This document shows positions 9,317 through 14,009 of a stretch of 64,000 bases of DNA, piece after piece (within the stretch, counting starts at the first letter, position 1; every line of letters starts with the position of its first letter). The notes under the pieces were generated by a model. It had not been told where the DNA came from, made no database searches, and saw nothing but the letters and a program-made list of their open reading frames with translations. The stretch is from an uncultured Candidatus Rokubacteria bacterium. GTDB taxonomy: Bacteria > Methylomirabilota > Methylomirabilia > Rokubacteriales > CSP1-6. The stretch lies in contig CAVVEU010000017.1 in assembly GCA_963747235.1 (NCBI GenBank), positions 1 to 64,000 of the forward strand, read 5' to 3'. The position numbers and the translations under genes are program-made.

Positions 9317-10408
9317 TCACGCAGTAGCCAGGGGCGGGAGCGCCATCTCCTTCGTGCACTCGGCGAACCACTCGATCACTTCCTTGTGGAGCGGGATCCC
9401 GTGGGCGCGCCGCTGGGCCAGCTCCTCGGCCTCGGAGAGCCCCGGGTAGAGCACGCGCTCCTGGCCCGGCGCGGGCGCGGCGGTGCGCAGGGTGCGAAGC
9501 ATGTCGTCCATGGTGTCCTTGAACCGTTCGAGGTCGGTGAAGGCCTTGATGTCGTAGGCGGCGAACTGGTTCTTCGAGCCGCTCCCGGGCGCCAGCATGG
9601 TGGGCAGCGCGCCGGCCAGCATCGTGGACAGGACCTCCGCCATCAGCGCGAAGCCGTAGCCCTTGTGCGAGCCCTGCTCGCGCGTGCCGCCGAGCGGGGC
9701 CTGGTAGACGTCGTCGCGATCGAAGATCGGCTTCTCCTCCATGATCGGGGTGCCGTCCTTGTCGGTCACCCAGCCCGCGAGCAACGGCGACCCGATCCGC
9801 ATCGCCAGCCGGATCTTGTTGCCCGCGATGGCGGAGGTGGCGGCGTCGAAGAGCAGCGGCGCCTCGCGGCGCGCGGGGGCTGCGAGCGCGATCGGGTTGG
9901 TGCCGAGCAGGGGCTTGGCCCCGAAGGTGGGCACCACGTGGAGACCCGCGGCGGTGAAGCAGGTGCCCACCATGTCGGCAGCCGCGGCCTGCATCGCGAA
10001 GTGGCCGATCGCGCCGAAGTGCCCCGCGTTGTGGACGGTGACGATGCCCACGCCTACCCGACGAGCCTTGTCCATGGCCAGCCGCATCGCCTTCGGCCCG
10101 ACGATGATGCCGAGGCGCTTGCCCGCGTCGATCACCGCGGTGCCGGGCGCCTCGCGCTCGATCGTCCAGCCCGGTTGCGGGTCGAGCTTGCCGGCCCGGT
10201 AGTCGCGGACATAGGCGCGCAGCATGTTCGACACGCCGTGCGTCTCGACCCCGCGCAGGTCGGTCATGGTCAGCACGTCCGCGGCCTCGGCGGCGTCCTC
10301 CGGGCTCACGCCGAGCTTCTCGAAGATCTGCGTGGTGGTCCGGCGCAGCGCGGCCTCGGAGACCAGCACCTGGTCCTGCAGGGGAACCTTGAAGCGCTCG
10401 AGGATCAT
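9317..10408 (-). CDS. Ldh_2 family NAD(P)-dependent oxidoreductase
   Basis: DLRGVETHGV, NAGHFGA, GTNPIA, GSHKGYG. Confidence 0.9.
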   Translation of the reverse strand: MILERFKVPLQDQVLVSEAALRRTTTQIFEKLGVSPEDAAEAADVLTMTDLRGVETHGVSNMLRAYVRDYRAGKLDPQPGWTIEREAPGTAVIDAGKRLGIIVGPKAMRLAMDKARRVGVGIVTVHNAGHFGAIGHFAMQAAAADMVGTCFTAAGLHVVPTFGAKPLLGTNPIALAAPARREAPLLFDAATSAIAGNKIRLAMRIGSPLLAGWVTDKDGTPIMEEKPIFDRDDVYQAPLGGTREQGSHKGYGFALMAEVLSTMLAGALPTMLAPGSGSKNQFAAYDIKAFTDLERFKDTMDDMLRTLRTAAPAPGQERVLYPGLSEAEELAQRRAHGIPLHKEVIEWFAECTKEMALPPLATA

Positions 10409-10448
10409 TGGATGGCTTCCTCCCGGGAGGCATCCTAGCCGACTTTAT

Positions 10449-10479
10449 TCTTGACCGACCGTTCAAGATTGGCTATGGT
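10449..10479 (+). promoter_or_regulatory. sigma70-type promoter TTGACC-17-TATGGT overlapped by operator palindrome TCTTGACCGACCGTTCAAGA
   Basis: -35 at 10451-10456, -10 at 10474-10479, inverted repeat 10449-10468 directly upstream of TetR. Confidence 0.7.
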
Positions 10480-10487
10480 CGCCCGCG

Positions 10488-11102
10488 ATGCCCCGCCAGA
10501 AGGAGTTCGACCGGGACGTGGCGCTGGACCGCGCGATGGGCGCCTTCTGGGCCAAGGGCTACGCGGCCACCTCCGTGGAGGACCTGGTCACCCGCATGGG
10601 GATCCAGCGGGGGAGCCTCTATGCCACCTTCGGCGACAAGCGATCGCTGTTCCTCAGCGCGCTCGACCGCTATCAGCGCGTCGTCACGCGGGAGCTCTTC
10701 GAGGCGCTCGAGGCGCCCGGCTCCGGTCTCGAGGCGATCCGGCGCTTCTTTCGCCTGCGGGTGGAGCGGTCGCTCGACCGGAGCCGGCCCGCGGGCTGCC
10801 TGGTCACGAACTCGGCGGTCGAGCTGTCGCGGCGAGATCGTGGCGCCGCGACCAAGGTGGGCAGGTCGCTGGCCGGGCTCGAGGCGGCCTTCCTCCGGAC
10901 CCTCGAGCGGGCGGCGGCACAGGGCGAGCTGGCCGCCACCCGGGACCGGCGGGGTCTCGCCCGGTTCCTGACCAGCAGCGCCCAGGGTCTCTCGGTGATG
11001 GCCAAGGCCTTCCCGGAGCGGGCGGTGCTCGAGGACGTGGTGAAGGTGGTCCTGGCCGCCCTCGAGGCGGATCCCGGTCGGAGGCCGCGGCGGAAGCGCT
11101 AG
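10488..11102 (+). CDS. TetR/AcrR family regulator, NemR/ComR-like
   Basis: FWAKGYAATSVEDLV..MGIQRGSLYATFGDK HTH; GCLVTNS in the C-terminal domain. Confidence 0.9.
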   Translation: MPRQKEFDRDVALDRAMGAFWAKGYAATSVEDLVTRMGIQRGSLYATFGDKRSLFLSALDRYQRVVTRELFEALEAPGSGLEAIRRFFRLRVERSLDRSRPAGCLVTNSAVELSRRDRGAATKVGRSLAGLEAAFLRTLERAAAQGELAATRDRRGLARFLTSSAQGLSVMAKAFPERAVLEDVVKVVLAALEADPGRRPRRKR

Positions 11103-11123
11103 CGACAAACGCAAGGAGACGCC

Positions 11124-11793
11124 ATGAAAGCGGTCGCGTTCGACGCCTACGGCACGCTCTTCGACGTGTTCTCGGTCACCGCGCTCGGCGAGGAGCTGTT
11201 CCCGGGCAAGGGCGACGCGCTGGCCCAGCTCTGGCGGCTCAAGCAGCTGCAGTACAGCATGCTGCGCAGCCTGATGGGCCGGCACCGCGATTTCTGGCGG
11301 CTCACCGAGGACGCCCTCGCCTACGCCACGCGGAGCCTCGGCCTGGACCTCACCCCCGACAAGCGCGCCCGCCTGCTCGAGGCCTACCTGACCCTGGCCG
11401 CGTTCCCCGACGTGAAGCCGGGGCTCGAGGCCCTGAAGCGGCGGGGGCTCCGACTCGCCATCCTGTCCAACGGCGAGCCCAAGATGCTCGAAGCGGCGGC
11501 CCGCAGCGCCGGGATCGTGGGCCTCCTCGACGCCATCCTGAGCGTCGAGGAAGTGAAGATCTTCAAGCCGAGCCCGCGCGTCTACCATCTCGCCCCCGAG
11601 CACCTGCGGGTGCGCCCGGACGAGCTCGGCTTCGTGTCCTCGAACTGCTGGGACGTGGCCGGGGCGGCCTCGGTCGGCCTCGAGACCTTCTGGATCCAGC
11701 GCCGAGCCGCCGAGCCGACGGAGGAGCTCGGCTTCGTCCGCGGACCACACGGTCCACACCATCACCGACCTTGTCCCGCTCCTGCGCGGGTAG
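11124..11793 (+). CDS. haloacid dehalogenase type II (frameshift near 11738)
   Basis: FDAYGTLFD, ILSNG, IFKPSPRVY, VSSNCWDVAGA; C-terminus ADHTVHTITDLVPLLRG-TAG(11791-11793) in the shifted frame. Confidence 0.88.
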
Positions 11794-11804
11794 AGGAGAC
11801 GCCC

Positions 11805-12458
11805 ATGTCACTCGAGGAAAAGCTCGCCACGATCCGGGAGATGGCCAAGACCCGCCAGCCACCGGAGGTGCGCGCGGTCATGCAGCAGGCGATCGAGGAC
11901 CTGCGCGCCTCCGGGATCATGGACCGTGTCGCCAAGGTCGGCACACCCGCGCCCGACTTCACGCTGCCCAACGCCGCGGGCCAGCCGGTGAGCCTGGCCG
12001 CCCTGCGGGCGCGCGGCCCGGTCGTGCTCTCGTTCTACCGCGGCCGCTGGTGACCCTACTGCAACGCAGAGCTGGACGCTCTGCAGCAGGCCCTGCCCGA
12101 GATCACCGCCGCCGGCGCCTCGCTCGTGGTGGTGTCGCCCCAGGTGGCGCGCACCACGCGCGAGACCGAGGAGCCCAAGCCCATGACCTACGAGGTGCTG
12201 CGCGACCTCGGTAATCGCGTGGCCGAGCAGTACGGGCTGGTCTTCACGCTGCCCGAGGCGCTGCAGGCCATCTACACCAAGTTCGGCATCGACCTGCCGA
12301 AGGGCAACGGCGACGGCACCTGGCGCCTGCCCGTCCCGGCCCGCTTCGTGATCGACCGGGAAGGGATCGTCCGCGCGGTCGATGCCGACCCCGACTACAC
12401 GCGCCGCCCCGAGCCAGCGCAGACGATCGAGGTGCTGCGGCGCCTCCGGGCTCGCTGA
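11805..12458 (+). CDS. AhpC/TSA peroxiredoxin-like selenoprotein (UPYC; TGA 12051-12053 = Sec83)
   Basis: GAGGAG RBS; APDFTLP...FYRGRW-TGA-PYCNAEL continues in frame to LPVPARFVIDREG..DPDYTRRPEP; SECIS-like hairpin after the TGA. Confidence 0.88.
12059..12089 (+). promoter_or_regulatory. putative bacterial SECIS element (peroxiredoxin-like gene)
   Basis: GCAGAGC-TGGAC-GCTCTGC perfect stem 12066-12084 plus CTGC/GCAG lower stem; loop starts 19 nt after TGA. Confidence 0.7.
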
Positions 12459-12471
12459 GGAGAGGCGCGCG

Positions 12472-12990
12472 ATGACCACACCGCCGGGACTCGACCCATC
12501 GGTCCGGAGCCGCGAGATCGTCTTCGAGGCGGACGTCACGGGCGTCACGCCGTTTCTCAAGCTGGCCACCGTCAGCCTCAACGGGACCTCGCACATGACC
12601 ATCGCGTGCGACGAGGGGCCGAGCCTGGGTGGCCTGGGCTCGGCGCCCACGCCGCTCATGTACTTCAGCGCCGCGCTCGCGTTCTGACTGATGACCCAGG
12701 TGTCCCGGTACGGGCACATGCTGAAGGTGAGCGTGACGCGGATGACGATGCACGTGAAGGCGAGCTTCCGGGTGACCGGCTCGGTCCTGGACGACACGAT
12801 CGACGGCGAGATGCTCGGGGCCGAGACCACGCTCGCCCTCGAGTCGCCCGACCCTCCGGACCGGGTGGCCCGGGTCGTGCGTAACGCCGAGCGCGGCTGC
12901 TTCGTGATGCAGGCCCTGCTTCGCCCGGTGCCGATCACCGGCCGAACCCTCTTGAACGCCGAGCCCCTGGTGGTGCAAGCCCCTCGTTGA
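12472..12990 (+). CDS. OsmC-like selenoprotein (TGA 12685-12687 = Sec72)
   Basis: GAGGAG RBS; DEGPSLGGLGSAPTPLMYFSAALAF-TGA-LMTQ continues in frame to second Cys in AERGCFV. Confidence 0.82.
12700..12717 (+). promoter_or_regulatory. putative bacterial SECIS element (OsmC-like gene)
   Basis: GTG-T(bulge)-CCCG-GTA-CGGG-CAC stem beginning 12 nt after TGA. Confidence 0.65.
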
Positions 12991-13067
12991 CCCGGGGGCC
13001 CCGGCGGGGCTAGATTCGGTTCCTGGGCGCTCCGTCCCTTCCACCCCGGGGCCCCGAGGAGGCTCGC

Positions 13068-14009
13068 ATGCTCGGTCTGGGAATGGCGTCGTCACATGCC
13101 CCGATGATGTTCCAGAAGGCGCAGTACTGGCCGCGGGTGGTCGGACGGATCCCCGCCGAGGCCCGCGAGCAGCTCCCGCGGAGCGCCCGGGAGGAGATCG
13201 CGAGCCCGGCCATCATCGAGGCAAACATCCAGCGCATCGAGGCCGGCCTGGCCACCCTGCGCGAGCAGCTCCGGGCCTATCGCCCGGACGCGCTCGTGAT
13301 GATCGGCGACGACCAGGGCGATCTGTTCGACGACGCCAACAACCCCACCTTCTCGGTCTACACCGGCGAGGAGCCCCTGTGGGGCCGCAGCGCCCGCGAT
13401 AGCTACGACACGCCGCCGGCGGAGCGGACCAAGCTAGTGTTCCGGCCCCATCCCGAGCTCTCCCGCCATCTCCACCGCGGGCTGGTGAAGCGCGGCTTCG
13501 ACATGGCCAGCATCGGGCGCTTCGATCCGCGTGGCAATCCCACGCGCGGCGTCTCGCACATGGTCTCGAACCTGGTGCCCGAGGTGGATCCGGCGCTCGA
13601 GATCCCGCTGGTGTGCGTGTTCATGAACGAGTACTACCCGCCGCTCCCCGGCGCGGCCCGCTGCGCGCGCCTGGGCGAGGCCATCGCCGACGTCTTCCGC
13701 GATCGGCCGGAGCGCATCGCGATCTACGCCTCGGGCGGCCTCTCCCATTTCCCGGGCATGTACAACGCGGGCTGGATCGACCAGCCGCTCGACCGGTGGA
13801 TTCTCGAGCGGCTCGAGCGCAACGACCTGGCCGCGATGGAGCATCTCTTCACGTTCGACTCCGACGCCATGCGCTCCGGCACGGGCGAAGTCCGGGCGTG
13901 GGTCAGCACGGCCGCCGCGATGAACCGGCCCGCGAAGGTGGTGGACTACGTGCCGGCGCACTGCGCCCAGACCGGGTGCGGCTTCGTCTACTGGCCGGCA
14001 ACCGATTAA
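13068..14009 (+). CDS. class III extradiol ring-cleavage dioxygenase, LigB-like
   Basis: ASSHAP, PDALVMIGDD, ASGGLSHFP, SGTGEVRAW. Confidence 0.8.
   Translation: MLGLGMASSHAPMMFQKAQYWPRVVGRIPAEAREQLPRSAREEIASPAIIEANIQRIEAGLATLREQLRAYRPDALVMIGDDQGDLFDDANNPTFSVYTGEEPLWGRSARDSYDTPPAERTKLVFRPHPELSRHLHRGLVKRGFDMASIGRFDPRGNPTRGVSHMVSNLVPEVDPALEIPLVCVFMNEYYPPLPGAARCARLGEAIADVFRDRPERIAIYASGGLSHFPGMYNAGWIDQPLDRWILERLERNDLAAMEHLFTFDSDAMRSGTGEVRAWVSTAAAMNRPAKVVDYVPAHCAQTGCGFVYWPATD

Follow-up and report, generated by a model that had tools for sequence, protein, structure and literature searches.

A Prx-like and an OsmC-like selenoprotein gene in a putative TetR-regulated redox-defence unit of Candidatus Rokubacteria

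Here, we describe a compact gene cluster at positions 10449 to 12990 of a 64,000-nucleotide (nt) stretch of DNA (contig CAVVEU010000017.1 of assembly GCA_963747235.1; the whole stretch is hereafter called the window) from an uncultured Candidatus Rokubacteria bacterium of the phylum Methylomirabilota. The cluster consists of genes for a TetR-family regulator, a haloacid dehalogenase (HAD), a Prx-like protein and an OsmC-like protein, and each of the last two is interrupted by an in-frame TGA. As judged by sequence comparison, it is nearly certain that both are real selenoprotein genes, of the Prx-like UxxC and OsmC-like families, in which TGA specifies selenocysteine (Sec, U). Together with the TetR gene and an operator-like palindrome, they probably form one regulated unit, and we consider it likely that this unit is stress-inducible and serves in selenium-dependent redox defence. 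The cluster was first pointed out in an earlier note made from the letters of the window alone. The two selenoprotein genes, their Sec codons and their candidate Sec insertion sequence (SECIS) hairpins are as follows.

11805..12458, forward strand: Prx-like thiol:disulfide oxidoreductase selenoprotein, 217 amino acids (aa), U83-P-Y-C86 (AhpC-TSA, 1.4e-29)
12051..12053, forward strand: Sec codon (UGA) of the Prx-like gene, residue 83 (TGA conserved in orthologues)
12066..12084, forward strand: SECIS hairpin of the Prx-like gene, stem of 7-8 base pairs (bp), GG in the loop (folding and helix in orthologues)
12472..12990, forward strand: OsmC-like selenoprotein, 172 aa, U72-L-M-T, second Cys143 (NF041052)
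12685..12687, forward strand: Sec codon (UGA) of the OsmC-like gene, residue 72 (TGA conserved in orthologues)
12700..12717, forward strand: SECIS hairpin of the OsmC-like gene, loop GUA and a bulged U in the stem (folding across relatives)

Each gene contains a single in-frame TGA, lying in the motif W-U-P-Y-C of the Prx-like protein and in A-F-U-L-M-T of the OsmC-like protein, and both the coding signal and the family homology run on past it. In a search of 41 genomes of the same order, all 17 Prx-like matches of at least 40% identity that covered residue 83 carried exactly one TGA. The TGA column was checked in 13 of the 17, and in all 13 aligned orthologues it was the same column, opposite the first Cys of the CxxC in Cys-containing paralogues and homologues. 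The Cys-form homologues, which are 50-57% identical and annotated as 'peroxiredoxin-like family protein', read W-C-P-Y-C. For the OsmC-like gene, 80 loci were collected from Rokubacteria, Binatia, Deltaproteobacteria, Dehalococcoidia, Pseudomonadales and others; TGA occupied the aligned codon in 79 of them and TGC in 1. It should be noted that these 80 loci came from one-genome-per-species collections and were seeded by two conserved peptide patterns beside the site, and are not an unbiased sample of the family. The earlier note had proposed that the last two genes are split by a TGA at the catalytic Cys position, and had asked for TGA/Cys pairing in homologues; the TGA/Cys pairing was borne out, with TGA kept in the orthologues and Cys at both sites in the Cys forms.

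The source genome (assembly of 5.57 Mb in 42 contigs, 88% complete, 4.9% contamination) also contains the full set of decoding genes for which a search had been recommended. A tRNA-Sec with anticodon TCA was found at 69.3 bits (cut-off 47), and selA, selB and selD scored 578, 365 and 228 bits, all exceeding their cut-offs. The tRNA-Sec gene adjoins selA and selB on contig 14, and selD is located elsewhere. A point that counts against Sec decoding is that both selD copies are split in this assembly, across two and three frames (G000 C27:46033-46945 and C8:303114-303868). The frame breaks fall at G/C-rich runs, which suggests assembly indel errors; damaged selD genes are a less likely explanation.

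Alternatively, the TGAs might have nothing to do with Sec, being true stops of split genes or pseudogenes, assembly errors for TGC or TGT, or codons for some other residue. The same assembly does have indel errors in or near other genes, two database entries carry W at the Sec site, and both selenoprotein genes themselves terminate in TGA, so TGA must be a normal stop here unless its context recodes it. However, TGA stays at the same codon in independent assemblies of many species and several phyla, coding signal and homology persist beyond it, Cys takes its place in the Cys forms, the covarying hairpins behind it are absent in the Cys form, and the complete Sec machinery is in the genome. Thus, we regard a non-Sec reading as extremely improbable and already close to refuted. 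When the entire window was scanned for TGAs with coding-like flanks, 6 sites were returned, and the 4 other than those described here look like ordinary gene ends with the next gene following, as read by eye from the flanking residues.

Current annotation handles such genes poorly. Public gene calls for Sec-form Prx-like proteins are either C-terminal fragments of 125-141 aa, have W at the Sec site, or jump frame around the TGA (misannotated entries P0009-P0012, P0015, P0025, P0073 and P0127). The expectation that gene callers would fragment the unit was therefore correct as far as the Prx-like gene is concerned, for which C-terminal pieces, W read-throughs and frame-hopped versions were all seen. 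In addition, the match to a Sec-encoding Prx-like gene at L079:2004-2646 comes in two overlapping pieces, a probable frameshift in a public metagenome-assembled genome (MAG).

Each UGA is followed by a hairpin. That of the Prx-like gene has a 7-bp stem and the loop UGGAC (-18.1 kcal/mol, z -1.99), and was equalled by 6 of 200 shuffled sequences. Over 25 distinct orthologous sequences, 97.5% of the cells of an 8-bp helix were paired, and the changes within the helix comprised one compensatory pair (C-G to U-A) and two one-sided substitutions. At the corresponding position, two distant Prx-like orthologues have quite different stems, whose loops are GUCU and GGA, as read from their sequences. 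The hairpin of the OsmC-like gene (stem GUG[U]CCCG/CGGGCAC, loop GUA) is not significant by energy (z -0.22, with 74 of 200 shuffles folding equally), which weighs against it when it is taken singly. When the OsmC cores were folded one by one, each distinct core separately, a hairpin of 6-10 bp formed in 27 of the 28 distinct cores of the Sec form, which represent 78 loci, and its stem varies widely by lineage. These hairpins start 15-16 nt past the U of UGA and place the loop at +21 to +28, and the loop mostly reads G(G)U (exceptions, L103 and L073). The sole Cys-form core (L133:4001-4483, TGC, Planctomycetaceae) gave no hairpin (0.0 kcal/mol). In both hairpins of the window, the distance from the U of UGA to the apical G residues is 22-24 nt, in agreement with the previous description of a hairpin with an apical GG 20-22 nt downstream. 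When 10300-13200 was scanned against Rfam with E values of up to 10, no SECIS family and only four chance-level matches were retrieved. A single cross-phylum consensus structure for the OsmC SECIS was considered and rejected, since loop length and the bulge shift the register.

The Prx-like protein combines an AhpC/TSA fold (PF00578) with a thioredoxin-like U/C-x-x-C motif, which assigns it to the Prx-like UxxC selenoproteins, a thioredoxin-like family in print since 2005 (PMC1088965) and named 'Prx-like thiol:disulfide oxidoreductase' in a 2026 review (PMC13188914). Like other members, it has Cys homologues of 50-57% identity and U-P-Y-C in place of the T-x-x-C of peroxiredoxins (Prx). It differs in that no specific NCBIfam model was found above cut-off; the best selenoprotein-related model, SelL_rel_redox, gave 28 bits against a cut-off of 120. 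In an alignment with AhpE (F-F-P-L-A-F-T-G-I-C), Sec83 falls on the Prx Thr, an Arg on the Prx Pro and Cys86 on the peroxidatic Cys, and only the Cys of the canonical motif P-x-x-x-T-x-x-C is retained. The label 'Sec-peroxiredoxin' given in the earlier note should therefore be dropped, as Sec replaces the Thr and the Pro is replaced as well. On the other hand, the Cys at the peroxidatic position is accompanied by a conserved Arg in the segment P-A-R-F-V-I-D, which we take to be the site of the Prx catalytic Arg. With both residues kept, the protein could be a peroxidase in its own right and not a reductant, which would speak against the role favoured for it below.

The OsmC-like protein matches NF041052, 'OsmC-related (seleno)protein', with 160.6 bits (cut-off 95), and the closest relative with a solved structure is the Cys-form 3cje. 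It has the motif U72-L-M-T (UxxT) and a second Cys, Cys143, that is invariant. OsmC-like UxxT selenoproteins were described in 2005 from the Sargasso Sea (PMC1088965), and the window protein shares with this family the UxxT motif, the second conserved Cys and a SECIS with an apical G after the UGA. Thus, it is an ordinary member of its family, and what is new is its partner and its regulator in Rokubacteria.

Further selenoprotein candidates of the OsmC family were seen during this comparison. A second OsmC-family selenoprotein, with the motif A-V-A-G-U-L-T-G-N and a TGA of its own, occurs at L072:2135-2671 (reverse strand), L080, L081, L082, L087, L089 and L114, so in such relatives three selenoprotein genes are clustered at the locus. 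An inverted repeat, GC-rich and with the loop UGGAU, was seen by eye behind its TGA, and the gene lies directly behind a divergent TetR gene in 5 of the 7 loci, no TetR match being present in L087 and L089. A different second OsmC-family selenoprotein was found at L104:4520-5070 (reverse strand). The source genome itself has an OsmC-family gene with one in-frame TGA (G000:C13:295848-296246, reverse strand; L143) whose product is 38% identical to the A-V-A-G-U-L-T-G-N type, and the Prx-like search returned several more thioredoxin-fold matches with one TGA. On the basis of these sequences, the source genome looks selenoprotein-rich. In Binatia and Deltaproteobacteria (L106-L130), the Sec-encoding OsmC-like gene has an AI-2E family transporter gene upstream in 9 loci and, downstream, a gene for a CMD-family protein in 8 loci and one for a thioredoxin-TPR (Trx-TPR) protein in 9 loci. 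The CMD proteins were not counted as support for a redox partnership, and the one examined (L110) is without CxxC.

The two selenoprotein genes are embedded in the following arrangement.

10449..10468, no strand: operator-like palindrome TCTTGACCG..CGTTCAAGA, 9-nt arms, 89% complementary, overlapping the -35 box
10451..10479, forward strand: sigma-70-like promoter, TTGACC, 17 nt, TATGGT (9/12 matches)
10488..11102, forward strand: TetR-family repressor, 204 aa (TetR_N and TetR_C_13 domains)
11124..11793, forward strand: type II (L-2-) haloacid dehalogenase, frameshifted (TIGR01428)
12987..13016, forward strand: second promoter-like site, after the OsmC stop and before the LigB-like gene, marking the end of the unit
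9317-10408, reverse strand: Ldh_2-family gene, divergent flank upstream of the four genes
13068-14009: LigB-family gene, downstream flank

All four genes lie on the forward strand with gaps of 21, 11 and 13 nt between TetR, HAD, Prx-like and OsmC-like, and a GGAG-type ribosome-binding site precedes each of the last three. Two promoter-like sites were observed in 10300-13200, where shuffles led us to expect 0.0, and an intrinsic terminator was looked for in this range and not found. One strand, short gaps, a single upstream promoter and no internal terminator found are the marks of an operon, and the layout of four close same-strand genes behind one promoter/operator, as originally noticed, was thus confirmed. 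The TetR ATG is 9 nt past the -10 box in the window (10474-10490), and 7-9 nt past it when the divergent loci are included, without a Shine-Dalgarno sequence; judging from this spacing, TetR is probably translated from a leaderless mRNA. The same palindrome motif, about 20 bp long, was recognised by eye in each of the 16 upstream or intergenic stretches compared, namely the window, 2 co-directional loci, 11 loci with divergent TetR and Prx-like genes, and 2 TetR-less loci. In the divergent loci, the 20-bp palindrome sits between the TetR and the Prx-like gene. At L077:2850-3339, a second copy of the palindrome lies 5' of a small extra open reading frame (ORF) inserted between these two genes.

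How much of this arrangement is conserved was examined by gene order, using only Pfam-confirmed neighbour clusters, as the ORF clusters were noisy (antisense ORFs in high-GC DNA). The Sec-encoding forms are written here as Prx(U) and OsmC(U). In 18 of the 80 OsmC loci, OsmC(U) is immediately preceded by Prx(U) on the same strand (gap of 0-32 nt), and in 3 further loci Prx(U) lies 1.0-1.35 kb upstream. All 21 of these pair loci lie among the 44 Rokubacteria-type loci. A TetR orthologue stands beside 13 of the 21. It is co-directional in 2, those of the genomes closest to the window, and is divergent in the other 11; the association thus outlasts inversion. A second Prx(U)-OsmC(U) pair is present elsewhere in genome G005.

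Several results argue against a fixed module. HAD occurs in 4 of the 21 pair loci, always directly behind TetR, and Prx(U) is missing beside OsmC(U) in 23 of the 44 Rokubacteria-type loci. Within the same genus and between the same flanks, the order is TetR-HAD-Prx-OsmC in the window and G020 and TetR-Prx-OsmC in G013, and in G001 and G005 Prx(U) stands alone behind an operator remnant. The remnant was located in L028 (G001) at 1415-1503 and in L030 (G005) at 2146-2235, with a few OsmC 3'-end bases left in G005; from the sequence, these two loci look like clean deletions of TetR (with or without HAD) and of OsmC. Because the fourth gene varies across loci, the conserved core in Rokubacteria is TetR, the operator, Prx-like(U) and OsmC-like(U), with HAD optional and the fourth gene interchangeable. 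The four-gene operon of the earlier note thus stands only in part: the selenoprotein pair and TetR are partly kept together, but HAD (4/21) and TetR (13/21) are not strictly co-conserved with it. In G020, a short way upstream of TetR, a gene for a large serine recombinase (Recombinase and Zn_ribbon_recom; L064:3-1956) directly adjoins a truncated Ldh_2 gene; it may represent a mobile-element insertion and is not found in the window.

The HAD gene itself requires some caution. Its product matches TIGR01428 at 221.8 bits (cut-off 125.4), and the model is fully covered before the frameshift. When set against the intact 222-aa orthologue of G020, the gene has one extra base at 11736/11737, so that its final 18 codons and its TAG stop (11791-11793) fall in the +1 frame, and frame 0 stays open, without a stop, into the Prx-like ATG (11805). 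The stretch 11736-11804 is hence open as a potential HAD-Prx fusion ORF, either real or the product of an assembly indel. An indel of this kind is plausible, given that the same assembly splits both selD copies at G/C-rich runs. Programmed frameshifting was considered and rejected, with no slippery motif evident at the site and the orthologue in one frame.

It is quite possible, though somewhat short of an even chance, that HAD has no part in the function of the unit and is an accessory gene behind TetR in some genomes, perhaps a pseudogene here. Such a view would account for its scarcity (4 of 21 pair loci and the window), for the slot behind TetR being occupied by the second OsmC-family selenoprotein in 7 other loci, for the HAD-free order with the same flanks in G013, and for the frameshifted copy in the window. 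However, HAD follows TetR in both co-directional (window, G020) and divergent (L076, L078, L104) layouts, and its stretches F-D-A-Y-G-T-L, S-N-G, K-P-S-P-x-x-Y and S-S-N-x-W-D, which presumably contain the catalytic residues, are conserved in 5 of 5 copies. The shift, moreover, affects only the last 18 codons, past the TIGR01428 model, in an assembly with other frameshifts. In the reading that we favour, HAD is an optional passenger of the regulon that may remove haloacids able to alkylate thiols and selenols. The reactive-halogen or haloacid detoxification suggested in the earlier note is best taken as a conjecture.

The best solved relatives of the regulator are 2i10 (6e-25) and CifR (5e-21, PDB 6nsn), and NemR, which shares its TetR_C_13 domain type, ranked 37 of 41 (E 4.6e-4, 23.5 bits), so the designation 'NemR-like' did not survive the comparison. 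The idea of a Cys-based sensor fared better: TetR has a single Cys, Cys104 in a Gly-Cys, which is invariant in 13 of 13 orthologues and aligns with the Cys of the G-C-L-V segment of CifR (Gly-Cys of helix alpha-6). With nearly full-length similarity and this conserved Gly-Cys, the protein can be classed as a CifR-like Cys-bearing TetR. In the Pseudomonas aeruginosa epoxide sensor CifR, the equivalent Cys107 is required for epoxide-triggered release of DNA, and NEM also frees the DNA, according to the CifR paper. The palindromic operator and divergent regulator of CifR resemble the situation in most relatives of the window TetR, whereas CifR controls an epoxide hydrolase and the window TetR would control selenoproteins. 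It should be noted that the same paper finds a Cys equivalent to Cys107 in 52% of 938 TetR sequences; thus, Cys104 is weak evidence for any particular ligand.

We propose that TetR would bind the 20-bp palindrome over the promoter, repressing itself and the downstream genes, and that modification of the buried Gly-Cys104 by an oxidant or electrophile would release it, on the model of CifR Cys107. The OsmC-like selenol would then reduce (organic) hydroperoxides, and the oxidised protein would form a selenenylsulfide with Cys143, which a thiol or selenol reductant would resolve. The obvious candidate for this reductant would be the Prx-like UxxC protein, or else another thiol system. A peroxide-detoxifying role of this kind appears to us to have a close to even chance of being correct, at most.

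The more specific proposal of a dedicated relay is held as doubtful. Here, the Prx-like UxxC protein would recycle the OsmC-like protein, and the two would act as a two-selenoprotein hydroperoxide reductase switched by a CifR-type sensor through the operator, to which some relatives would add a second OsmC-family selenoprotein or a selenol-protecting HAD. It is suggested by the tight adjacency of the two genes, by the dependence of OsmC/Ohr enzymes on a thiol reductant, and by a clostridial precedent: a Sec-glutaredoxin reportedly reduces Sec-MsrA, which Kim et al. are said to have described in 2011 as 'tandem use of selenocysteine'. The likeness lies in a Sec reductant serving a Sec enzyme; the protein families are different, and a relay in the window is hypothetical. 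That each gene is often found without the other weighs against it.

The two selenoproteins might instead act independently, as parallel detoxifiers that share nothing but a regulator, and we regard this as a possible, tentatively held explanation. In its detailed form, to which we give the same tentative standing, the Prx-like protein would be a peroxidase or a general disulfide/selenenylsulfide reductase, and the OsmC-like protein would be recycled by lipoyl proteins or thioredoxin. Prx(U) without an OsmC(U) neighbour in G001, G005, G029, G024, G010, G026 and G015, and OsmC(U) without Prx(U) in 59 of the 80 loci, would agree with this, as would the placement of OsmC(U) beside Trx-TPR (9 loci) or CMD (8 loci) proteins in other phyla and the retention of Cys86 at the Prx peroxidatic position. 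On the other hand, the 0-32 nt same-strand gap in 18 loci, the persistence of the pair through inversion of the TetR side and the second copy of the pair in G005 speak against purely independent action.

With respect to previous work, both selenoprotein families are in print, and selenoprotein operons, with at least two Sec-encoding redox genes per transcription unit, are a recognised theme (PMC2398784, PMC13188914), to which the 2026 review devotes a section. The window agrees with these operons in that respect; it differs in that the parts of these papers that treat the theme name no pairing of a Prx-like with an OsmC-like gene, and in adding a conserved TetR and operator. Full-text literature searches found neither this pair nor a TetR-controlled selenoprotein unit, although supplements, including those of the groundwater-MAG study (ref. 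66 in PMC13188914), may list the pair. The BSepDB paper mentions neither OsmC, Prx-like nor operon. Thus, the statement in the earlier note that this is not a described system holds, as it seems, for the pairing and its regulator, but not for the families or for selenoprotein operons as such.

For Methylomirabilota, one MAG is reported to contain 63 predicted selenoprotein genes (PMC13188914). In this phylum, reported to have the largest bacterial selenoproteome, the window offers a clear and well-supported case of two adjacent, probably co-regulated selenoprotein genes with a SECIS for each. The case also illustrates how such genes are lost in annotation, the Prx-like entries being fragmentary, read through with W or frame-hopped. 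The arrangement provides a testable hypothesis on the function of the OsmC-like (COG1765-type) selenoproteins and of their Prx-like neighbour, and the conserved operator and regulator give a handle on the signal that induces selenoprotein expression in these uncultured soil bacteria.

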